Shown in pieces: positions 20,095 through 64,000 of a DNA stretch of 64,000 bases; position 1 is the stretch's first letter; the number at the start of each line of letters is the position of its first letter. The stretch spans positions 192,758,001 to 192,822,000 of the forward strand of contig OZ024742.1 of NCBI GenBank assembly GCA_964016885.1, in the 5' to 3' direction. The position numbers and the translations under genes are program-made. Source of the stretch: Eledone cirrhosa (taxonomy: Eukaryota). The notes below the pieces were generated by a model. The model made no database searches. It was not told the DNA's origin and was given only the letters and a program-made list of their open reading frames with translations.

Positions 20095-20866
20095 TATTAT
20101 TGCTATTATTGTTCTTTGAGTCTCAGTCATTGATGTTATTTAACTGGAAAGTTTGTTGAAGTGAATATCAAGCCGCTACCTGCAGCCTCAGATATTCAGG
20201 ACGTATCGGAGGGTTCTTGCTGTTCCCAGCAAGCATGCCTTTTGAAGTGTTCCAAAAAGCGGGGCACCAGGGCAAGGACAAACAACAGAGGGGACAGGCT
20301 ATCTCCCTGGAAGATACCTCTCTTGATCTTCACGCTTCCCAAGGATTCTCCAGTTGATGTCAACTCTGTTTCCCAGGACCTCATACTCTTGCCCAACAAC
20401 TGTCTGATGTTATCTGCCACCTTGAAGATCTCCAGGCTTTTGGTGATCCAAGAATGAGGCACCATGTCAAATGCCTTTCTGTAGTCTATCCATCCCATGG
20501 CAAGATCAGTGTGTCTCCTCCTGCAATTCCCCATTACCATCTTATCAATAAGTAACTGGTCCTTTGTACCACGTGACTTCTTTCGGCATCCTTTCTGTTC
20601 GTCCGGTAACAAGTTGTTTGTGTGGAGGTGATGGTAGATTTCCTCAGACACAATGCTCGTCAACAGTTTCCACATTACGGACAGACATGTGATAGGTCTA
20701 TAGTTGGTAACATCATTACCCTTGATTCGGTCTTTCATTACCAGAACTGTGGTACCTTTTGTCAACCACTCTGGTACCTCACCTGACATCAAGCAGTCAT
20801 TGAACATGGTTGTCAGTTTCGGGTGGAGGGATGTTATATTTTTAATCCAATACCCCTGCACACCAT
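20095..20866 (-). mobile_element. 5'-truncated, internally deleted sister copy of the Dong element
   Basis: Highly similar to 21810-21968 and 23410-24014; ~1.44-kb deletion at ~20260; flanked by (TTA)n. Confidence 0.92.
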
Positions 20867-20882
20867 TTTATTATTATTATTA

Positions 20883-21808: not shown

Positions 21809-24800
21809 GTTATTGTTATTCCTTGAATCTCAGTCATTGATGTTGGTTAACTGGAAAGTCCGTTGGATTGAATATCAAGCCACTACCTGCAGCCTCAGAT
21901 ATTCAGGACGTATCGGAGGGTTCTTGCCGTTCCAAGCAAGCATGCCTTTTGAAGCGTTCCAAAAAGCGTGAAGGGGCCGATTTTCTTTAACCATCCCTGG
22001 AAACCTTTGGAGATAGTCCCCAGTGCGCCTATGACAATCGGGATCACTTTGACTTCATGGCAGTTCCAAATCCTTTTCACCTCCCACTTTAGGTCCTGGT
22101 ATCGGTTAATTTTCTCCCTCTCCTTCTCTTGCACTCTCGTGTCGAACGGGCAGGCCACATCCACAATCAGGCACGATCTTTTTTCTTTGTCCACAACCAC
22201 CAGGTCAGGTCTATTGTGTTCCAGTTTTTTGTCCGTCTGTATCCTAAAATCCCACAGCACCTTCACCTGACTGTTCTCCATCACCGCCTCTGGCCTATGC
22301 TCATACCATTTCTCAGAATGTGGTAGATTGTTTACTTTGCACAGGTGCCAGTGGATCACCCTGCCCATCACATCGTGTCTCCAGCCCTTATAGTGGGTCT
22401 GGGCTAGGTGTTTACACTCGGACACAATGTGAGCCACAGTCTCCTCTCTCTCTCCACAGATCCTGCACAGTGGGCTAGCCTCCTCCTTGTAGATATGGTG
22501 CTTCAACCACTTCGTTTTGAGGGCCTGCTCCTGCGCAGCCATTAGCATTCCTTCTGTAGCCTTTTTGAGGTCTCCTCTTCTCAACCAGTTCCATGTCTGT
22601 GGATCTCTAAATTCAGTTTTATCAAAGAAGGTACTATGAAGGGATTTTCCCTTAAGGTTGCTCTTCCTCCTTGATGTTATTTCCTCCTTTGATATCCCCT
22701 GGCCTACTGTCCCCTCCTTCAGTACAGCTCTGAGCATTGGCTCCTTACTATAGGTCACGTATTTGTATAGGTTGTTTTTCTCCATCTGAACACAGTCCTC
22801 TATGCTGATAAGACCTCTTCCACCCTCAGATCTCCTTAGGTAGAGTCTATCGACATCACTCCTCTTGTGGAATATGTTGTAGATAGTCAATAGCTTCCTA
22901 GTCTTCCTATCCATTTCTTTTTGTTCAGCAACATTCCATCTCAGAATTCCCGCACTGTACCTAATAATAGACACAGCTCGGGAATTTACTGCGCTTATGG
23001 CATTTCTGCTGTTCAGATGTGACTTCAATACGCTCCTTACTCTCCGAATGTATTCAGTTCTTAACAATTCCTTCATTTTTTTGTTCTTTATGCCATCAGC
23101 CTCCAGAACGCCCAAATACTTGTATCCTTCCTCAGAGTCAATTTCCTTTATCATCTCACCTGTTGGTATCTGGATCCCGTTACTTCTGCTCAACCTACCC
23201 CTCCTCATCACAATGACTCCACATTTACCAATACCAAACTGCATACATATATCACTGCTGAAAATACGGACAGTGTCAACAAGCACATCCAACTCCTTCT
23301 CACTTTTCTCGAAGAGCTTAAGATCGTCCATGAAGAGGAGGTGATTGATGGTAAGCTCTCCCCTTCCCAACTTGTATCCCGCTCTCACTTTTCGCAGCAT
23401 AATGGTCAAGGGCATCAGGGCAAGGACAAACAACAGAGGGGAGAGGCTATCTCCCTGGAAGATACCTCTCTTGATCTTCACGCTTCCCAAGGATACTCCA
23501 GTTGATGTCAACTCTCTCTCCCAGGACCCCATACTCCTGCCCAGCAACTGTCTGATGTTATCTGCCACCCTGAAGATCTCCAGGCTTTTGGTGATCCAGG
23601 AATGAGGCACCATGTCAAATGCCTTTCTGTAGTCTATCCATCCCATGGCAAGATCAGTGTGTCTCCTCCTGCAATTCCCCATTACCATCTTATCAATAAG
23701 CAACTGGTCCTTTGTACCACGTGACTTCTTTCGGCATCCTTTCTGTTCGTCCGGCAACAAGTTGTTTGTGTGGAGGTGATGGTAGATTTCCTCAGACACA
23801 ATGCTCGTCAACAGTTTCCACATTACGGGCAGACATGTGATAGGTCTATAGTTGGTAACATCATTACCCTTGATTCGGTCTTTCATTATCAGAACTGTGG
23901 TACCTTTTGTCAACCACTCTGGCACCTCACCCGACACCAAGCAGTCATTGAACATGGCCGTCAGCTTCGGGTGGAGGGATGTTAAATGTTTAATCCAATA
24001 CCCCTGCACACCATCTGGGCCTGGTGATTTCCAGTTGGTTAGTTTTTTGGCTTGCCCCTTAAGAGTTTCAACTGTGATACTCAAATCAGTCTGTTGCTGT
24101 GCCTGCTCACCGATCTCCCTCTGTACTGTCTCAATCCACCCTGCCTGGGCATTGTGTCTAACATCCTGCTCCCATATTCCTCTCCAGAATGTTTTAGCTT
24201 GTTCCGCCCCAGGGATCAAGTCGTTGCCTCTTTCTTTCCCCTCAAGCTGTCCAAACAGCATCTTCTGGTTGTTGTCGAACATGCGGTTCTGTTTATACTG
24301 ACTGACTCTGTTCTCGTATCGCCTGATTTTGGCACTCTTTGCTACAATGCGTTGCTTCAATTCCTCTATGATAATATTTAGCTTTTTACTCCTAGTTTTG
24401 TATTTTATTTCCAGTCTATTTTTAGTGCCTATGTTTTTTAGTGTCCCATTCAGTAGTGACTCAAGCTTTCCTATGTCATTTCTCATTTCCCCGATTTGCC
24501 CACTCAGTCGCTTCTTCCACCACGGCTCTGCTCTTTCTTGTCTGTTGTTTCCTCTCGCTTTTATACCAAGTAGTTTCCTCACCGTATTTGCTGTTGCTTT
24601 GAGGATATTGTTGCACTGGTGAAGACTTCTCGCCTCAAGGTATGGGATGACTTTGTTTACCTTAGCTGTTGTTTCTTTTAACTTTTTCCTGTCTACAAAT
24701 CTTAGGTTCATAGGTCTCCCACTATCATTGTTCAACTCATCTACCACTAAATTTAGGATGTCAACCGAATCTTGTCCTAGCCCGTCAGCATTCATCTCCT

Positions 24801-26349
24801 CAGTGGCCGTATCTCTGTTCCAGGTATTATTTATCTCAGTATTCAGATCATTGTCTGCTTCGGGTGGTTCCTCCGTTCTCAGGACCTCCTCACCTTCATT
24901 TCCCGCCGGCTCGCTTGTCTGGCATACTACACCCGCCATCTCCAAGCCATTCTCTCTGCTCAGTTCCTCCAGTTCCAGCTCGCTTATCCACCCATTAGTT
25001 CTTATTACCCGAGCCTGCCCGGCCAATTTTTGTTCATCTAATTTAAATAAACCAATCTCGTTCCAGATGTTATGCATCCGTCTCCTGTAGCCCCTCTCCT
25101 TGGGGTTACTTTTCAGGTAGCATTGCATAACAGTTCTATTCAATTCTTTCGTCCAGTTGGTTCTGGCCCCTTTCCTTCTTCTTCTTCCTCCAACATCAGC
25201 AGTATTTCGTTGACAGTCAGGTTCCTGCTGCTGAGCCAGGGGGCACCTGTTGGGTGAGAGTCTGTCACATGACGTTCTAGTCTCCATTTCACCGTTATTC
25301 GAACTGTTTATGTTCGATATTTAAACACTCTTATCGAGGATTGGCGAATGTATGTTTACATAGCCATCTGTGGATCCGCCATCCCACTTGGCCCTTGTGT
25401 GGCATTATCACCACGCTGTATACGGACACACATAAACAAACAAACACACGGGCAGAAAGGGCCCCAAAAATGAATAAGCATAAGTTTCATTGTAATGTAG
25501 TATTCGAATGTCTGACTTAGTTTTTGTTTTTTAAGTTTTACTTTTTCCCCCCTCTTCTCTGTCCGTCCACCTGCTTCTCTCTTCATTCTTATTTTCTTTA
25601 CGTTTTTGGGGTTTCTTTTTTTTGTTTTTGTTTTTCTCTGTTTGTTTTTCTCGTTTTTTGCTGTTGTTGCTGTGCTGCTTTTGTTGTTTGTTTTTTCTTT
25701 TTTCTTTTGAGTCTATCTATATATTTTGATGCCTTCCTCTTTGTTAGTAGTAGGAATTCTGTAATGTGGAAGTGACAGCCAGCAGAGACTGGCGGCGTTG
25801 GCGATACTGAGACAGTGGTGGTGGTGATGTCGATACCGAGGCAGTGGTGGCGGTGATGCGACCGTATTACTGTAGTGATGGTGCTGTAGCGGTGGCAGCA
25901 GCAGTGAAGGAGTCAAGGGGTGGTGGCGGCGGTGATGGGATAGTGGTGGTAATGATGGCCGTAGTGAGCGGTGGCGGTGAAGGTGAAAATGCTGTTGTGT
26001 TTAGTGTACACAGATGATGGGGTGGGTGGTGTATCTAGTTTCTGGTGTTGGTGAGTTTCGCTGTCCTATATAGTGTAGCCAGAGGAGAGGAAGGGGGGGG
26101 GGTTCTTCTTCTTCCATTTATAGCCATTTTTTTTTGGATATACAGTGTACAATACAAAGTTGAATATTTGAATATTTGAGCCTTATAACAATATATTTTG
26201 GGTCCGAATTTTTTTTGGGGCTCAAGCCGGGTGCTTTACGTAGCATTTGTACTAAGAGTTGTTATTTCACAAATGATTTAAATATGTTAAAAATTCAAAA
26301 CTTACGGGAGCGATTTCATGACCTCCGTCACCTCGTGCGTCTTCTTCCC

Positions 26350-26505: not shown

Positions 26506-29500
26506 TCAGATATTCAGGACGTATCGGAGGGTTCTTGCCGTTCCAAGCAAGCATGCCTTTTGAAGCGTTCCAAAAAGCGTGAAGGGGCCGATTTTCTTTA
26601 ACCATCCCTGGAAACCTTTGGAGATAGTCCCCAGTGCGCCTATGACAATCGGGATCACTTTGACTTCATGGCAGTTCCAAATCCTTTTCACCTCCCACTT
26701 TAGGTCCTGGTATCGGTTAATTTTCTCCCTCTCCTTCTCTTGCACTCTCGTGTCGAACGGGCAGGCCACATCCACAATCAGGCACGATCTTTTTTCTTTG
26801 TCCACAACCACCAGGTCAGGTCTATTGTGTTCCAGTTTTTTGTCCGTCTGTATCCTAAAATCCCACAGCACCTTCACCTGACTGTTCTCCATCACCGCCT
26901 CTGGCCTATGCTCATACCATTTCTCAGAATGTGGTAGATTGTTTACTTTGCACAGGTGCCAGTGGATCACCCTGCCCATCACATCGTGTCTCCAGCCCTT
27001 ATAGTGGGTCTGGGCTAGGTGTTTACACTCGGACACAATGTGAGCCACAGTCTCCTCTCTCTCTCCACAGATTCTGCACAGTGGGCTAGCCTCCTCCTTG
27101 TAGATATGGTGCTTCAACCACTTCGTTTTGAGGGCCTGCTCCTGCGCAGCCATTAGCATTCCTTCTGTAGCCTTTTTGAGGTCTCCTCTTCTCAACCAGT
27201 TCCATGTCTGTGGATCTCTAAATTCAGTTTTCTCAAAGAAGGTACTATGAAGGGATTTTCCCTTAAGGCTGCTCTTCCTCCTTGATGTTATTTCCTCCTT
27301 GGGTATCCCCTGGCCTACTGTCCCCTCCTTCAGTACAGCTCTGAGCATTGGCTCCTTACTATAGGTCACGTATTTGTATAGGTTGTTTTTCTCCATCTGA
27401 ACACAGTCCTCTATGCTGATAAGACCTCTTCCACCCTCAGATCTCCTTAGGTAGAGTCTATCGACATCACTCCTCTTGTGGAACATGTTGTAGATAGTCA
27501 ATAGCTTCCTAGTCTTCCTATCCATTTCTTTTTGTTCAGCAACATTCCATCTCAGAATTCCCGCACTGTACCTAATAATAGACACAGCTCGGGAATTTAC
27601 TGCGCTTATGGCATTTCTGCTGTTCAGATGTGACTTCAATACGCTCCTTACTCTCCGAATGTATTCAGTTCTTAACAATTCCTTCATTTTTTTGTTCTTT
27701 ATGCCATCAGCCTCCAGAACGCCCAAATACTTGTATCCTTCCTCAGAGTCAATTTCCTTTATCATCTCACCTGTTGGTATCTGGATCCCGTTACTTCTGC
27801 TCAACCTACCCCTCCTCATCACAATGACTCCACATTTACCAATACCAAACTGCATACATATATCACTGCTGAAAATACGGACAGTGTCAACAAGCACATC
27901 CAACTCCTTCTCACTTTTCCCGAAGAGCTTAAGATCGTCCATGAAGAGGAGGTGATTGATGGTAAGCTCTCCCCTTCCCAACTTGTATCCTGCTCTCACT
28001 TTTCGCAGCATAATGGTCAAGGGCATCAGGGCAAGGACAAACAACAGAGGGGACAGGCTATCTCCCTGGAAGATACCTCTCTTGATCTTCACGCTTCCCA
28101 AGGATACTCCAGTTGATGTCAACTCTGTCTCCCAGGACCCCATACTCCTGCCCAGCAACTGTCTGATGTTATCTGCCACCCTGAAGATCTCCAGGCTTTT
28201 GGTGATCCAGGAATGAGGCACCATGTCAAATGCCTTTCTGTAGTCTATCCATCCCATGGCAAGATCAGTGTGTCTCCTCCTGCAATTCCCCATTACCATC
28301 TTATCAATAAGCAACTGGTCCTTTGTACCACGTGACTTCTTTCGGCATCCTTTCTGTTCGTCCGGCAACAAGTTGTTTGTGTGGAGGTGATGGTAGATTT
28401 CCTCAGACACAATGCTCGTCAACAGTTTCCACATTACGGGCAGACATGTGATAGGTCTATAGTTGGTAACATCATTACCCTTGATTCGGTCTTTCATTAT
28501 CAGAACTGTGGTACCTTTTGTCAACCACTCTGGCACCTCACCCGACACCAAGCAGTCATTGAACATGGCCGCCAGCTTCGGGTGGAGGGATGTTAAATGT
28601 TTAATCCAATACCCCTGCACACCATCTGGGCCTGGTGATTTCCAGTTGGTTAGTTTGTTTGCTTGCCCCTTAAGAGTTTCAACTGTGATACTCAAATCAG
28701 TCTGTTGCTGTGCCTGCTCACCGATCTCCCTCTGTACTGTCTCAATCCACCCTGCCTGGGCATTGTGTCTAACATCCTGCTCCCATATTCCTCTCCAGAA
28801 TGTTTTAGCTTGTTCCGCCCCAGGGATCAAGTCGGTGCCTCTTTCTTTCCCCTCAAGCTGTCCAAACAGCATCTTCTGGTTGTTGTCGAACATGCGGTTC
28901 TGTTTATACTGACTGACTCTGTTCTCGTATCGCCTGATTTTGGCACCCTTTGCTACAATGCGTTGCTTCAATTCCTCTATGATAATATTTAGCTTTTTAC
29001 TCCTAGTTTTGTATTTTATTTCCAGTCTATTTTTAGTGCCTATGTTTTTTAGTGTCCCATTCAGTAGTGACTCAAGCTTTCCTATGTCATTTCTCATTTC
29101 CCCGATTTGCCCACTCAGTCGCTTCTTCCACCACGGCTCTGCTCTTTCTTGTCTGTTGTTTCCTCTCGCTTTTATACCAAGTAGTTTCCTCACCGTATTT
29201 GCTGTTGCTTTGAGGATATTGTTGCACTGGTGAAGACTCCTCGCCTCAAGGTATGGGATGACTTTGTTTACCTTAGCTGTTGTTTCTTTTAACTTTTTCC
29301 TGTCTACAAATCTTAGGTTCATAGGTCTCCCACTATCATTGTTCAACTCATCTACCACTAAATTTAGGATGTCAACCGAATCTTGTCCTAGCCCGTCAGC
29401 ATTCATCTCCTCAGTGGCCGTATCTCTGTTCCAGGTATTATTTATCTCAGTATTCAGATCATTGTCTGCTTCGGGTGGTTCCTCCGTTCTCAGGACCTCC

Positions 29501-29898
29501 TCACCTTCATTTCCCGCCGGCTCGCTTGTCTGGCATACTACACCCGCCATCTCCAAGCCATTCTCTCTGCTCAGCTCCTCCAGTTCCAGCTCGCTTATCC
29601 ACCCATTAGTTCTTATTACCCGAGCCTGCCCGGCCAATTTTTGTTCATCTAATTTAAATAAACCAATCTCGTTCCAGATGTTATGCATCCGTCTCCTGTA
29701 GCCCCTCTCCTTGGGGTTACTTTTCAGGTAGCATTGCATAACAGTTCTATTCAATTCTTTCGTCCAGTTGGTTCTGGCCCCTTTCCTTCTTCTTCTTCCT
29801 CCAACATCAGCAGTATTTCGTTGACAGTCAGGTTCCTGCTGCTGAGCCAGGGGGCACCTGTTGGGTGAGAGTCTGTCACATGACGTTCTAGTCTCCAT
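26506..29898 (-). CDS. R4/Dong polyprotein (RT + RLE), copy 2
   Basis: Same motifs; intact 1130 aa; 10 aa differences from copy 1 by my count. Confidence 0.96.
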   Translation of the reverse strand: METRTSCDRLSPNRCPLAQQQEPDCQRNTADVGGRRRRKGARTNWTKELNRTVMQCYLKSNPKERGYRRRMHNIWNEIGLFKLDEQKLAGQARVIRTNGWISELELEELSRENGLEMAGVVCQTSEPAGNEGEEVLRTEEPPEADNDLNTEINNTWNRDTATEEMNADGLGQDSVDILNLVVDELNNDSGRPMNLRFVDRKKLKETTAKVNKVIPYLEARSLHQCNNILKATANTVRKLLGIKARGNNRQERAEPWWKKRLSGQIGEMRNDIGKLESLLNGTLKNIGTKNRLEIKYKTRSKKLNIIIEELKQRIVAKGAKIRRYENRVSQYKQNRMFDNNQKMLFGQLEGKERGTDLIPGAEQAKTFWRGIWEQDVRHNAQAGWIETVQREIGEQAQQQTDLSITVETLKGQANKLTNWKSPGPDGVQGYWIKHLTSLHPKLAAMFNDCLVSGEVPEWLTKGTTVLIMKDRIKGNDVTNYRPITCLPVMWKLLTSIVSEEIYHHLHTNNLLPDEQKGCRKKSRGTKDQLLIDKMVMGNCRRRHTDLAMGWIDYRKAFDMVPHSWITKSLEIFRVADNIRQLLGRSMGSWETELTSTGVSLGSVKIKRGIFQGDSLSPLLFVLALMPLTIMLRKVRAGYKLGRGELTINHLLFMDDLKLFGKSEKELDVLVDTVRIFSSDICMQFGIGKCGVIVMRRGRLSRSNGIQIPTGEMIKEIDSEEGYKYLGVLEADGIKNKKMKELLRTEYIRRVRSVLKSHLNSRNAISAVNSRAVSIIRYSAGILRWNVAEQKEMDRKTRKLLTIYNMFHKRSDVDRLYLRRSEGGRGLISIEDCVQMEKNNLYKYVTYSKEPMLRAVLKEGTVGQGIPKEEITSRRKSSLKGKSLHSTFFEKTEFRDPQTWNWLRRGDLKKATEGMLMAAQEQALKTKWLKHHIYKEEASPLCRICGEREETVAHIVSECKHLAQTHYKGWRHDVMGRVIHWHLCKVNNLPHSEKWYEHRPEAVMENSQVKVLWDFRIQTDKKLEHNRPDLVVVDKEKRSCLIVDVACPFDTRVQEKEREKINRYQDLKWEVKRIWNCHEVKVIPIVIGALGTISKGFQGWLKKIGPFTLFGTLQKACLLGTARTLRYVLNI

Positions 29899-30468
29899 TT
29901 CACCGTTATTCGAACTGTTTATGTTCGATATTTAAACACTCTTATCGAGGATTGGCGAATGTATGTTTACATAGCCATCTGTGGATCCGCCATCCCACTT
30001 GGCCCTTGTGTGGCATTATCACCACGCTGTATACGGACACACATAAACAAACAAACACACGGGCAGAAAGGGCCCCAAAAATGAATAAGCATAAGTTTCA
30101 TTGTAATGTAGTATTCGAATGTCTGACTTAGTTTTTGTTTTTTAAGTTTTACTTTTTCCCCCCTCTTCTCTGTCCGTCCGCCTGCTTCTCTCTTCATTCT
30201 TATTTTCTTTACGTTTTTGGGGTTTCTTCTTTTGTTTTTGTTTTTCTCTGTTTTTCTCGTTTTTTACTGTTGTTGCTGTGCTGCTTTTGTTGTTTGTTTT
30301 TTCTTTTTTCTTTTGAGTCTATCTATATATTTTGATGCCTTCCTCTTTGTTAGTAGTAGGAATTCTATAATGTGGAAGTGGTAGCCAGCAGAGACTAGCG
30401 GCGTTGGCGATACTGAGACAGTGGTGGCGGTGATGTCGATACCGAGGCAGTGGTGGCGGTGATGCGAC

Positions 30469-36154: not shown

Positions 36155-36784
36155 GTGTATGTATATGTGTGTTCATCTCGAGTCCGAGTTAAATCAGGGG
36201 TAGGGGGCGGGTGACTAAAGCTAAAAAGATACTGAATACATTAATAGAGTGTAATTATCATATTTAATATAGAATTGACTTTACAAGACTAGAACAGTTT
36301 TATTTGCATGAAATCAACAGGGCATTCCTGATGGTCTCATACAAATATATATACTATATAAAAAGTATCGATGTATATTAAATATTTACCGATAATGCTT
36401 CTCAATAAAAAAAAAAGCTCAATAGACCTTAATTCAGGATATTATCAGCTGTACAAGTTTAACCGATATAAAGAGAAAGGAGAAATGGGTTTATATAATT
36501 CGCGAAACACATAGGTGTTTGTACACATATATAAAACAAATAATTTAGCACTACCTTAAACTATGTAATATTTGCTCTATACATGTGTACAATGCTATGT
36601 GCTTCTCAAAAGATGCCTTTCTCTCTCTCTCTATCTCTCTCTTTCTCTCTCCCCCTCTCTCTCTGTCTATCTCCCCTCTCTGTCTCTGCTATATATATAT
36701 ATATACACATATATATATAACTACCAACATATTATCGCTCTACATGGCTGAATACAATAAATGTAATCTGAGTTTTTCGAATAT

Positions 36785-36878
36785 TAGTAATAATATTCGA
36801 TTGATTTGCAATTATGCAAACAGCCTCTTTTAAGCCATGACAGTAGAATGAACCCCTCATTCTTGCCCGTGTGTTGGC

Positions 36879-36909
<31 letters not shown>

Positions 36910-37400
36910 ATGTAGGAGGTGAGTTTTATTGTAGTACAATAAAGCAATGCAGATATCGGATAAGAAGCACTCTACAGTTTGTGGGACTGGAGTATGCATA
37001 ATATAAGATCAAAAGATGGTTAAAGGAGTTCAATATATTTTATTATGCGCATTTCAAAAACAAACATCATCAAACAATAATATTTGTGTTTTCATTAGTA
37101 ATAATATTCGATTGATTTGCAATTATGCAAACAGCCTCTTTTAAGCCATGACAGTAGAATGAACCCCTCATTCTTGCCCGTGTGTTGGCATGTATATATA
37201 TATATATATATATATAATGTAGGAGGTGAGTTTTATTGTAGTACAATAAAGCAATGCAGATATCGGATAAGAAGCACTCTACAGTTTGTGGGACTGGAGT
37301 ATGCATAATATAAGATCAAAAGATGGTTAAAGGAGTTCAATATATTTTATTATGCGCATTTCAAAAACAAACATCATCAAACAAATATATTTGTGTTTTC
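36785..37400. repeat. ~308-bp tandem duplication of composite pLTR-like sequence
   Basis: 36785-37092 repeated at 37093-37400. Confidence 0.85.
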
Positions 37401-59301: not shown

Positions 59302-59359
<58 letters not shown>

Positions 59360-59361
<2 letters not shown>

Positions 59362-59467
59362 TTGTAATAAAATGAAAACGAAATTTCATTTCTCACTCTT
59401 AGTGCGGCACTTACTTAAATGTAAGTATGTATGTATACGTACATACATATATGTGTACATGTATGCA

Positions 59468-59549
<82 letters not shown>

Positions 59550-59981
59550 TGCTACTGTACGTCTGTATACATATATGTATGTACGTATACAAACATACTT
59601 ACATTTAAGTAAGTGCCGCTCTAAGAGTGAGAAATGAAATTTCGTTTTCATTTTATTACAACTCATCGTTCTCGGTGCGCCTGACCGACTTAGCTCACTC
59701 GATATGCAAATTAGGCTGCTCAGCCGTTAATTTTCATAAGGAAAGTATATACTTTCGAACGTTCAACTATCTGGCAGATGGGTATACGGTGCTGATGATA
59801 GCTAACAAGCTTGAAACTAGTACATCGTTCCTGTGTCAGTGTTGAACAAAAAGGTGACGTGGTTGCCTTAACACCGTGCGGCATAAATTCAGGCTGTTCA
59901 GTTTGTTTACAAACGAACAAAGCGGGCGTTATAATAAGCGTCCGCTAAACTGATGCGTACATATATGTATGTGTACCTGTA

Positions 59982-60122: not shown

Positions 60123-60623
60123 TCGAGAGCTTAATTAGTTTTGTGTGGTTTGTACAAATTTTTGCAATAACTACACATGTTGAATTCACTGGCCAAAATA
60201 GGGGTTTTCTCCCCTTAGAATCTCACATGTGCTCTCATAACCTGCGAGATTCTGGCGCAAGAAGAACAAAAACCCGTTGCGAAGCGATGCTTTGTTCGAT
60301 CATTATACCAAAAGCTTATTTTTTATAAGCAGACAGTATTATTGATTTAGATGTTGCAGAAACCCATCTTCCCCGAGGGTCCGGGTAACTATTTCAATCA
60401 TATCTCATTTTGTTTCACCCGTTTAGCTTGTTCGCTTTTTTGGCTATGTTGGTTAATGGGTTCTTAACCATCGTCTCAGCGTGTATGATCATTTTAACTT
60501 ATGTTTATGGCTCTGGGATCTTCTTCATATCCATGGAGTGCTTGTCTGCACAATATGGAAGTTGCGTTTCGCTAATTTCTACCCGCCGAAATGCGATTCT
60601 ACCTAAATTTATGTTTATATATA

Positions 60624-60688
<65 letters not shown>

Positions 60689-60694
<6 letters not shown>

Positions 60695-62899
60695 TATGAA
60701 GAGAGAAGAAACATTTAGTTATAATTAGTAATAAAATGTATCATACCTAAACTGCTCCTAGATTCCTCGACTACGTAAGTTTCGTGGCATAAAGAAAAAC
60801 AATACATCATGAAGATATAGAGTCCTTGCGAGGTCTGCCGACTTATCAAGAGGATACCTCATTTTACTAGTCTCAAGAACGCGTCTACACGACGTGAGAA
60901 AGAATCCCAAAAGGCGGAGGGGGAGATAGTCACGCGATATAACGGTCGAGAAACAGAGTTAAGCCTCTTATAACCCCGAAGAAAATACCACGGAGGCGGA
61001 GGGGTATTTATATCGAAGCCGTAGAAGAGGTGGTGAAGGAGGCGAGAAGTATGAGTAATGGAAGCTTTCCAGCAGTCCCCACACTTCAAAGATTGCTCGA
61101 CCAGAGGGAGCCATCAACAATATATTTAGAAACACACAGATACATGCGGACACACACATATACATGAATGCATCCGCACCCAACCGCGAGTTAAGGGTGC
61201 CAACTTCACCGATGTTGCTCAATGAATGACTGGGACAGACCAATCCGGTTGAACTAGACTGAACCAGTATCAGAGTTAAAAATACATTATGAAGAGAGAA
61301 GAAACATTTACATATAATTAGTAATAAAATGTATCATACCTAAACTGCTCCTAGATTCCTCGACTACGTAGTTTCGTGGCATAAAGAAAAACAATACATC
61401 ATAAAGATATAGAGGCCTTGCGAGGTCTGCCGACTTATCAAGAGGATACCTCATTTTACTAGTCTCAAGAACGCGTCTACACGACGTGAGAAAGAATCCC
61501 AAAAGGCGGAGGGGGAGATAGTCACGCGATATAACGGTCGAGAAACAGAGCTAAGCCTCTTATAACCCCGAAGAAAATACCACGGAGGCGGAGGGGGTAT
61601 TTATATCGAAGCCGTAGAAGAGGTGGTGAAGGAGTCGAGAAGTATGAGTAATGGAAGCATTCCAGCTGTCCCCACACTTCAAAGATTGCTCGACCAGAGG
61701 AGCCATCAACAATATATTTAGAAACACACAGATACATGCGGACACACACATATACATGAATGCATCCGCACCCAACAGTGAGTTAAGGGTGCCAACTTCA
61801 CCGATGCTGCTCAATGAATGACTGGGACAGACCAATCCGGTTGAACTAGACTGAACCAGTATCAGAGTTATAAGAGGCTTAGCTCTGTTTCTCGACCGTT
61901 ATATCGCGTGACTATCTCCCCCTCCGCCTTTTGGGATTCTTTCTCACGTCGTGTAGACGCGTTCTTGAGACTAGTAAAATGAGGTATCCTCTTGATAAGT
62001 CGGCAGACCTCGCAAGGACTCTATATCTTTATGATGTATTGTTTTTGTTTATGCCACGAAACTACGTAGTCGAGGAATCTAGGAGTAGTTTAGGTATGAT
62101 ACATTTTATTACTAATTATATGTAAATGTTTCTTCTCTCTTCATAATGTATTTTTAACTCTGATACTGGTTCAGTCTAGTTCAACCGGATTGGTCTGTCC
62201 CAGTCATTCATTGAGCAACATCGGTGAAGTTGGCTCCCTTAACTCACGGTTGGGTGCGGATGCATTCATGTATATGTGTGTGTCCGCATGTATCTGTGTG
62301 TTTCTAAATATATTGTTGATGGCTCCCTCTGGTCGAGCAATCTTTGAAGTGTGGGGACTGCTGGAAAGCTTCCATTACTCATACTTCTCTCCTCCTTCAC
62401 CACCTCTTCTACGGCTTCGATATAAATACCCCCTCCGCCTCCGTGGTATTTTCTTCGGGGTTATAAGAGGCTTAGCTCTGTTTCTCGACGTTATATCGCG
62501 TGACTATCTCCCCCTCCGCCTTTTAGGATTCTTTCTCACGTCGTGTAGACGCGTTCTTGAGACTAGTAAAATGAGGTATCCTCTTGATAAGTCGGCAGAC
62601 CTCGCAAGGACTCTATATCTTTATGATGTATTGTTTTTGTTTATGCCACGAAACTACGTAGTCGAGGAATCTAGGAGCAGTTTAGGTATGATACATTTTA
62701 TTACTAATTATATCTAAATGTTTCTTCTCTCTTCATAATGTATTTTTAACTCTGATACTGGTTCAGACTAGTTCAACCGGATTGGTCTGTCCCAGTCATT
62801 CATTGAGCAACATCGGTGAAGTTGGCACCCTTAACTCACGGTTGGGTGCAGGTGCATTCATGTATATGTGTGTGTCCGCATGTATCTGTGTGTTTCTAA

Positions 62900-62905
<6 letters not shown>
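60689..62905. mobile_element. Retrozyme-like family E: ~593-bp unit, 2 copies then ~1.75 inverted copies, one hammerhead per unit
   Basis: Units start at 60689 and 61282; inversion at ~61868; motifs at 60764-60854(-), 61357-61446(-), 61987-62076(+), 62579-62668(+). Confidence 0.85.
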
Positions 62906-62931
<26 letters not shown>

Positions 62932-62936
<5 letters not shown>

Positions 62937-64000
62937 TTTCTGAATTTGTTTAGCAAGATTCTTTATCTGAAATCGTGTGTTGAAACCGATATTGTTATAC
63001 TTTGGGAGGGTCATGTTGCCAATAAGAAACACACGCACCAGTTGCTTTCACTTCAATTTAATTTATTATATATTTATAAATTTACAAATTTATAAATTTC
63101 TGGTTGGTTGGTTGGTTCCACAACCAGATAGTTGTTTATATATATATAGTCATAGTTCTTTCGTCACACACTCTGTGACCTCTTCAGTGACTGGGGATTT
63201 CTTTCTTCGTTTCTGTGCCTTTCCTTTCTTCTATCCTACGCCATTTTGTTTGTGTGTGGGTTGCGTGCTCAGTTTGCGCATGCGCCACATCCGGGTGTCT
63301 GTGTGTGTTTGTGTTCATTTTTCTATTTTTCTATTTCTATTTTTCTATTTGTTTATTTATTTATTTATTTATTGTTGGTTGGTTGTTTGTTCTATGTGTG
63401 TGTGTGTTTTCATTTTGTCTTATGTGTGTTTTCATTTTGTGTGTGTTTTCAATTGTAAGTTGTTTGTTCTATGTGTGTGTGTGTTTTCATTTTGTCCTTA
63501 ATTGTAAGTTGTGATGTTGCTGTTCCACTCATATTTTCTATTTAATTTTGGTTTTAATTCTTTTATGCTTACTGCCTCTGTAATTTGCCTAAACATTGCG
63601 TCTTTCTTGTGTGTGGATTCTATTTTTATTTCTATGCTCTCTAATTTACCCCTGTGTTCTATCTTAGCATGTTGGTAGAGCACAGATGATTCTTTATTAT
63701 CTTGGAGGTCTCGCCAGTGTTCATTTATTCGTTCCCCTATACTACGAGCTGTCTCACCTATGTACACTATATTTTTGTTTCTACATTGTCCTTCAGTACA
63801 TCTTATGCTATATACTACATTTCTAGTTTTACAGTTAATATGGGGGCTTATTTTACAGGTTATACATTTCTTATCTATACATGAGGGTCTTTGGAACGGG
63901 TATGTCTTGCTAATAAGTGTTTTTACGGAGGTACCAGGTCTTTCTACTATCTTAATATTGAGATTATGTTTCTTTAGGACCCTTCTAAATTTGTAGGCTA
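62932..64000 (-). mobile_element. Nematis-like PLE 3' end: GIY-YIG endonuclease + pLTR with hammerhead at 63149-63191; runs off the window
   Basis: CITC..CKTRNVVYSIRC..C..VYIGETARSIGERINEH..RQITEAVSI..LNRKYEW, stop at 63498. Confidence 0.9.

Follow-up and report, generated by a model that had tools for sequence, protein, structure and literature searches.

The segment at 60689-62906 of the window, the 64,000-nt stretch of DNA analysed here, is probably a single insertion of a non-LTR retrozyme, copied in trans by the RT and endonuclease of a PLE and most likely from a circular monomer RNA. It consists of two diverging arms of a ~593-nt unit, with pairwise identities of 97.6-98.4%, set between two (TA)n arrays (Table 1). 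The (TA)n flanks and the divergence of the arms near 61868 had been noticed in the initial annotation. The four near-identical units that it listed correspond to four hammerheads, but the arms hold only 3.75 units because they comprise ~2.0 and ~1.75 units. The concatemer, which it called young, is so in a relative sense only: its two full units differ at 11 sites, against a median of 1 in the sampled loci, and it is thus older than most of them.

Table 1. The retrozyme insertion and its immediate surroundings, in window coordinates. Unit position +1 follows the predicted ribozyme cut (after 62071 in the window); a dot marks features without strand.
Feature	Position	Strand	Remarks
(TA)n target array, left	60616..60688	.	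TA run spans 60616-60691
Left arm, ~2.0 units, 1,182 nt	60689..61870	-	3' end at unit +80 (60689); 5' end at the central junction
Hammerhead 1	60764..60854	-	U3:A8 core; 1-nt insertion in stem III; predicted cut after 60769
Hammerhead 2	61357..61446	-	U3:A8 core; predicted cut after 61362
Head-to-head junction, arms overlap by 4 nt	61867..61870	.	Unit positions about +84 and +389
Right arm, ~1.75 units, 1,040 nt	61867..62906	+	3' end at unit +243 (62906)
Hammerhead 3	61987..62076	+	U3:A8 core; predicted cut after 62071
Cut-to-cut monomer, 592 nt	62072..62663	+	593 nt is the commonest length in the family; folds well in sense only
163-nt stretch between the fixed 3' end points +80 and +243 (PLE-type 'tail')	62152..62314	+	
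Hammerhead 4	62579..62668	+	U3:A8 core; predicted cut after 62663
(TA)n target array, right	62907..62934	.	TA run spans 62900-62934; common to the retrozyme and the neighbouring PLE
Neighbour, separate insertion: 3' part of the autonomous-type PLE-A	62935..64000	-	Continues beyond the window

Each unit carries a U3:A8 hammerhead, as first described, with motifs beginning at 60854(-), 61446(-), 61987(+) and 62579(+), the first of which has an extra nucleotide in stem III. Hammerhead 3 is composed of stem I (61987-61991/62072-62076), the core (61992-61998), a long stem II and a palindromic stem III. With three helices, an open-ended stem I and a Watson-Crick variant of the 3:8 pair in its core, the motif has the layout of a type I hammerhead. 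Rfam at its gathering score gave no match in the window, also missing the canonical motifs found otherwise, including those at further PLE ends (34929(-), 38709(+), 39128(-), 39653(+), 45011(-) and 47134(+)).

The U3:A8 core is present in 197 of the 201 motifs read from genomic loci; among the first 100 ribozyme pattern matches listed, 99 are U3:A8 and one is U3:G8, and a genome pattern search that kept stem III unchanged yielded no canonical C3:G8 copies. The variant had been taken for a compensatory change. It does affect the 3:8 pair, but without covariation inside the family, which has no C3:G8 copy, and it is not new: U3:A8 is a described natural variant (Perreault 2011, PMC3088659), also found in the Cercyon PLEs of Schistosoma (PMC4209133), with activity in vitro according to both papers. 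When this pair was scanned by mutation in a type III hammerhead, exchange of C:G for G:C was the sole rescuing change (PMC9901934), and the activity of the U3:A8 hammerhead may therefore be low. Pairing was found in 95.1% of the cells over 22 hammerheads, compared with 35-58% when the pairing was slid. Double changes affect two of 28 pairs, and the covariation score is the sole measure of five above shuffles (4/500); in stem I, three of the 22 hammerheads have C-G in place of U-A. For stem III, the predicted energy is +1.5 if it forms a hairpin and -12.9 if two molecules form a duplex, and the active fold of the monomer is predicted to lie 1.1 kcal/mol above the local minimum, which makes it plausible that cleavage as a dimer is favoured but not required. 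Dimer cleavage by hammerheads was reportedly described by Lunse in 2017.

The 3.0-Gb assembly was searched with a 22-nt pattern over the 5' half of the ribozyme, leaving positions 3 and 8 free. This yielded 6,006 exact matches (control, 0), and a looser pattern 7,476 (control, 3). As the first 100 matches correspond to 55 loci, we estimate the family at ~3,300 loci. The other genomic copies that the initial annotation had anticipated thus number in the thousands: dispersed in (TA)n, devoid of LTRs and made of non-coding tandem units with a type I hammerhead, they resemble non-LTR retrozymes in these respects. Any target-site duplication would be hidden by the flanking (TA)n. In older subfamilies, with identities of 74-88%, similarity extends over the whole unit (588-597 nt), and subfamilies ~24% apart keep the U3:A8 core, the fold, the 3' ends and the inversion. 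A search for relatives with a short stem II gave 35 matches (control, 3), but the 20 that were fetched proved to be 19 family members or inversion junctions and one unrelated sequence. Contigs with whole or near-whole units at about 96-98% identity are also found in runs X5, X6, X7 and X9, from other organisms; a 621-nt contig of X5 spans one whole unit, and a 577-nt contig of X7 has a depth of 105, compared with ~5 for the flank contig. They may reflect related species, horizontal spread or trace DNA.

The 3' ends of the arms are fixed. Among the first 40 loci in position order, the 3' end falls within +74-86 or +238-248 in 67 of 73 arms, and 60 of the 73 continue into at least 6 nt of TA. 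No locus in this set is tail-to-tail, and 25 were flagged as head-to-head, a count that we lowered to 24/40 because the flag of L084 comes from a simple-repeat false arm. The 26 junctions listed for the set count L065, a duplicated locus, twice. Both ends are at fixed sites in 23 of them, with one of each in 22 (p=3e-6), L084 being the exception. Two of the remaining three resolve to one of each after merging, and L062 stays odd. A replicate set of 20 loci (the 15 left from the 22-nt pattern and five of eight extra loci from the looser one) contains seven inverted loci; six of six scorable junctions have one of each, and 25 of 27 ends are at fixed sites. The rule was also followed by all 12 best-hit loci and by 13 of the 14 loci picked by pattern.

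Head-to-head, 5'-truncated arms (24/40 and 7/20) with two fixed 3' ends, and a tail on one of them, are the features of PLE-type insertions. Published PLE copies have an inverted 5'-truncated arm, a 30-40-nt tail at one end and a bias for (TA)n (PMC8557442, Craig 2021; PMC3846280, Arkhipova 2013), and a PLE enzyme in vitro cuts and extends both strands, with two internal start sites that bound the tail (PMC11167929, Frangieh 2024). The two fixed ends, one per arm, match these start sites and the extension of both strands, and support PLE-type insertion. The central inversion is the ordinary PLE insertion pattern. That the two arms of the window end at different points is correct, but these are set by the family-wide +80/+243 rule and are not arbitrary AT-rich positions. 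Likewise, the permuted ends expected across genomic copies apply to the 5' side, where ends vary, and not to the 3' side. The 5' ends are spread over the unit, and no arm starts at the cut (+1); an apparent accumulation of 5' ends at the cut site, obtained with a unit-wise alignment, vanished when the reference was rotated. Half of the single-arm 5' ends (15/30) fall in +339..+434 (p=2e-5, for a window picked after the first 17 had been seen). At the junctions, the arms overlap by 0-7 nt or are separated by short fillers. One inversion junction (L091:4806-5065) contains several successive repeats of the same 11 nt of the unit, as would be left by a template that slipped more than once.

The inverted arm might also arise by fold-back self-priming, either of the first cDNA or of an antisense template. 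Fold-back has been proposed for rotifer PLEs (PMC3846280), and it would account for the two junctions at which both arms begin at one and the same unit position (L085 and L088) and for the 20 of 33 inverted loci in which one arm is nested in the other. In the other 13, the window's included, neither arm is contained in its sister, which rules out simple fold-back there and as a general route, and the arm lengths are uncorrelated (rho -0.02). We give this origin very little credence. Still more improbable are an artefact of the assembly and the growth of a satellite through unequal crossing-over. Although the junction of the window is spanned by none of the reads examined, and L012 and L065 were duplicated after insertion, dozens of loci on many contigs follow the same end rule with different break points, so that the artefact feared in the initial annotation is not borne out. 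Moreover, all four units of the window carry private differences, and raw DNA reads of two other samples contain a strand-switch joint inside the unit, in 83 and 56 reads with one start each.

Copies within a locus are nearly clonal. Full units differ by a median of 1 within loci (40 pairs in 18 loci), as opposed to ~20 between loci, and sister arms are 0.8% apart compared with 4.1% for other loci. After removal of six nested, duplicated or false-arm loci, the sister arm is the closest sequence, or tied, in 23 of 32 loci, and another locus is closer in nine. Within-locus tests at 22 columns diagnostic of subfamilies gave 15 discordant results out of 952, compared with ~447 expected (69 loci, after removal of 17 old, nested or complex ones). 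Altogether, clonality was compared in ~70 of the ~3,300 loci. In nine loci, a G>A change near +77 is found in the terminal copy only, as the TA primer would overwrite the template at this point; no other recurrent in-register difference within loci was seen among the 25 most recurrent columns listed. As 58 of 66 arms run through the cut site, 28 of them passing two, the template was not the cut linear monomer. Clonal units could also stem from homogeneous source arrays or template jumps, but a circle is their simplest source and, in our judgement, probably the template.

The main competing scenario keeps the two-site insertion by a PLE enzyme and replaces the circle by an uncut linear multimer, or by template jumps, with a hammerhead that is slow or dispensable. 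For the anole PLE, uncut RNA was reported to be the template in vitro and cleavage by the ribozyme not to be needed, with no RNA reads ending at the cut (PMC11167929); the scan in PMC9901934 indicates that U3:A8 may be slow; and the single-arm 5' ends clustered at +339..+434, near two GC boxes, could mark the start of a linear transcript. Autonomous PLEs likewise form tandems, and non-autonomous PLE derivatives of Chlamys form head-to-tail multimers without a hammerhead (PMC8557442). Nevertheless, we regard a linear template as unlikely. Arrays of 4-5 identical units, present in several different haplotypes, disfavour it, as do the lack of recurrent in-register differences within loci and the conservation of core, stems and unit length across 24% divergence. 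Linear copying alone would also be expected only to shorten the arrays.

The unit has no credible ORF, in agreement with the initial annotation: the frames of the subfamilies are of 45-134 aa, and those of shuffled sequences have a median of 77 and a 95th percentile of 117. The right arm contains a 205-aa stop-free frame through a private deletion only. None of 122 PLE proteins matched the unit at E<=0.01, and the unit lacks the RT + GIY-YIG ORF of an autonomous PLE. An endless ORF on a 591-nt circle, a length divisible by 3, was considered and rejected, the longest frame being of 86 aa. The sense monomer is predicted to fold better than 100 of 100 shuffles (z -3.4; old subfamily, -3.3; antisense, +0.1). 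Both +80 and +243 lie directly 3' of a long hairpin kept across subfamilies, in a structure derived from the same alignment. The hairpins of +1..+260 have a stronger covariation count than the ribozyme, with the same dependence of the predicted structure on the alignment. The block +339..+455 (window ~62410-62525) is conserved across subfamilies and harbours two GC-box-like motifs, and a TATA-like motif in young copies; it is possibly an internal promoter or an RT pause.

Several PLEs are present in the genome. The neighbour of the insertion, PLE-A, is of the Neptune type by its CX4CxxC linker (clade motifs in PMC8557442) and has an RT + GIY-YIG frame ending at 63498 and its own canonical minimal hammerhead core at 63187(-). 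Its copy in the window (also L031:2935-6238) sits in (TA)n as two head-to-head arms, one of which bears a 54-nt tail. There are 30,043 exact end 20-mers of PLE-A in the genome; among 21 inverted loci (20 from 26 chosen pairs, plus the neighbour), 20 combine a long end with a short one. The best named relative of its protein is from Octopus vulgaris (67%), in keeping with a host that is probably an octopod. PLE-C is of the Hydra type by its CxCX5C linker and ends at ~+51 and ~+162 from its own hammerhead cut. Its copies at L138:3910-6160 and L140-L159 are young (96-99% identity), with a ~111-nt tail and a 782-aa frame in L144, and its hammerhead has a very long stem II and a palindromic stem III. 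PLE-B (L031:6400-9946), located immediately beyond the window and also of the Hydra type, has an 820-aa open frame without Pfam match and, in its 3' region, a canonical hammerhead with a palindromic stem III.

The initial annotation had proposed mobilisation by a PLE-type RT primed from both target strands, and the use of one 3' end per arm, as in PLE-A, supports this. Since the unit is laid down in the two-armed pattern of the PLEs of its genome, it is likely to parasitise a PLE enzyme. The layout of PLE-C, with its long tail, long stem II and palindromic stem III, is nearer to that of the unit and suggests PLE-C as a candidate partner, as a lead only. PLE-A could not be designated by adjacency: it is found within 150 nt in 3/40 and 4/28 loci, but another TA-embedded element lies within 500 nt of 6/40 retrozyme loci, so that shared hot spots suffice to explain proximity. 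That small element is found in the window at 59357-59960, with an inverted end (59357-59459 vs 59564-59666) and a canonical hammerhead-like motif near 59792. A supposed retrozyme-PLE chimera, L027, was rejected, because the locus consists of a retrozyme and, next to it, an inverted PLE-C whose tail end faces it. The window also contains two near-identical, intact 1,141-aa non-LTR RT frames in tandem (21895-25320 and 26506-29931, both (-)), a third fragment (20196-20867) and a 307-nt tandem duplication at 36783-37400, 98% identical and containing (TA)n.

It is very improbable that the unit is the pseudo-LTR of a not-yet-found autonomous PLE and its loci truncated stumps, although homology to PLE pLTRs is described for Xenopus retrozymes (Li, Clavereau & Pollet 2026, bioRxiv 10.64898/2026.07.22.740005; hereafter Li 2026) and a rare PLE parent can hide, since our searches score only the best 40 candidates. 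In none of 110 loci is a PLE frame joined to the unit, a permanent link that the initial annotation had named as a danger to its reading; the sequence 5' of the unit is another unit, an inverted arm or TA, and the PLE frames near 24 of these loci are separated from it. PLE-A stumps, by contrast, continue directly into the PLE-A ORF. Comparison of the unit with the PLE-A, PLE-B and PLE-C pieces, three of many PLE families, revealed no homology, including to pLTRs, a homology that Li 2026 describes for 24 of 57 families.

We therefore favour an insertion copied in trans by a PLE enzyme, for which the following course can be proposed. A tandem locus would be transcribed, U3:A8 hammerheads would cut out the monomer and a host ligase would close the circle. 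Judging from the statistics of the ends, the PLE enzyme would cut both strands of a (TA)n array, and the TA end of each strand would pair with a short AU-rich patch that directly follows a long hairpin, at +80 for one strand and at +243 for its partner. Both cDNAs would extend in the 5' direction of the unit, cross the ligated cut site and continue into further turns, so that the tandem units are identical. Joined at variable points, they would make the head-to-head form; if one failed, a single arm would result. In a more specific form, which we put forward tentatively, the unit is a viroid-like RNA circle with an attenuated U3:A8 hammerhead, forming its own lineage, unrelated to PLEs and with at least 24% drift, whose two hairpin-marked sites engage a two-subunit PLE enzyme, so that each cut strand obligatorily has its own start and rolls round the same circle. 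If this is true, the copies of the family document thousands of events of rolling-circle twin priming in the genome.

For retrozyme copying in animals, the role of PLEs has rested on co-occurrence and pLTR similarity. Here, the PLE footprint itself is seen on a retrozyme-type family, and PLEs showing that footprint are present in the same genome. The one-site-per-arm rule also bears on the unexplained 'tail' and inversion of PLEs: no difference in start site between strands was seen in vitro, whereas in this genome the two strands almost always differ. Being short and devoid of an ORF, with start sites mapped to two points separated by 163 nt, the RNA would lend itself to work on circular versus linear templates, strand assignment and a slow ribozyme. 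The U3:A8 core, retrozymes and PLE inversions with a one-sided tail are each already published; their combination, with the event-level statistics, makes the copying mechanism accessible to tests. In the literature searched, which lies outside subscription papers and Repbase, we found no direct genomic footprint linking these ingredients, no retrozyme from a cephalopod and none that combines two fixed ends with inversions; the main text of an O. vulgaris repeat annotation does not mention ribozymes.

Compared with published U3-A8 variants, the unit shares the replacement of C3 and G8 by U3 and A8 with those of Schistosoma Cercyon and of Perreault. Those described are mostly single, heterogeneous minimal motifs, whereas here the variant is fixed in a tandem family with full stems. 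Animal non-LTR retrozymes (PMC7229834; Li 2026), of which those of coral, mussel and axolotl make circles (PMC7229834), resemble the unit in being non-coding and tandem, with one type I hammerhead per unit, a GC content below 50%, thousands of dispersed copies, a structured sense RNA and co-occurrence with PLEs. The unit differs from them by its U3:A8 core throughout and a 57-nt insert in stem II, and its 593 nt are above the 170-400 nt tested by Cervera & de la Pena 2020 (PMC7229834) but inside the 51-972 range of Li 2026. In the latter study, eight of nine Xenopus retrozyme dimers did not cleave in vitro; unlike Xenopus retrozymes, the unit has no pLTR homolog among the PLEs compared. The published retrozyme descriptions consulted do not mention two fixed 3' ends, arms arranged head-to-head or a preference for (TA)n, all of which this unit has.

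These last features bring the unit close to endonuclease-bearing PLEs, with which it shares the head-to-head inverted 5'-truncated copy, the one-sided tail, the (TA)n and two starts downstream of a hammerhead. Unlike them, it has no ORF and its arms are clonal multimers of a short unit. Its tail, of 163 nt, is also longer than the published 30-40 nt and than those of PLE-A (54 nt) and PLE-C (~111 nt) in the same genome. The PLE derivatives of Chlamys (such as MRC1, PMC8557442) are likewise non-coding PLE passengers with multicopy head-to-tail insertions; they differ in having a 3' sequence common to their partner and, as described there, most of them carry no hammerhead.
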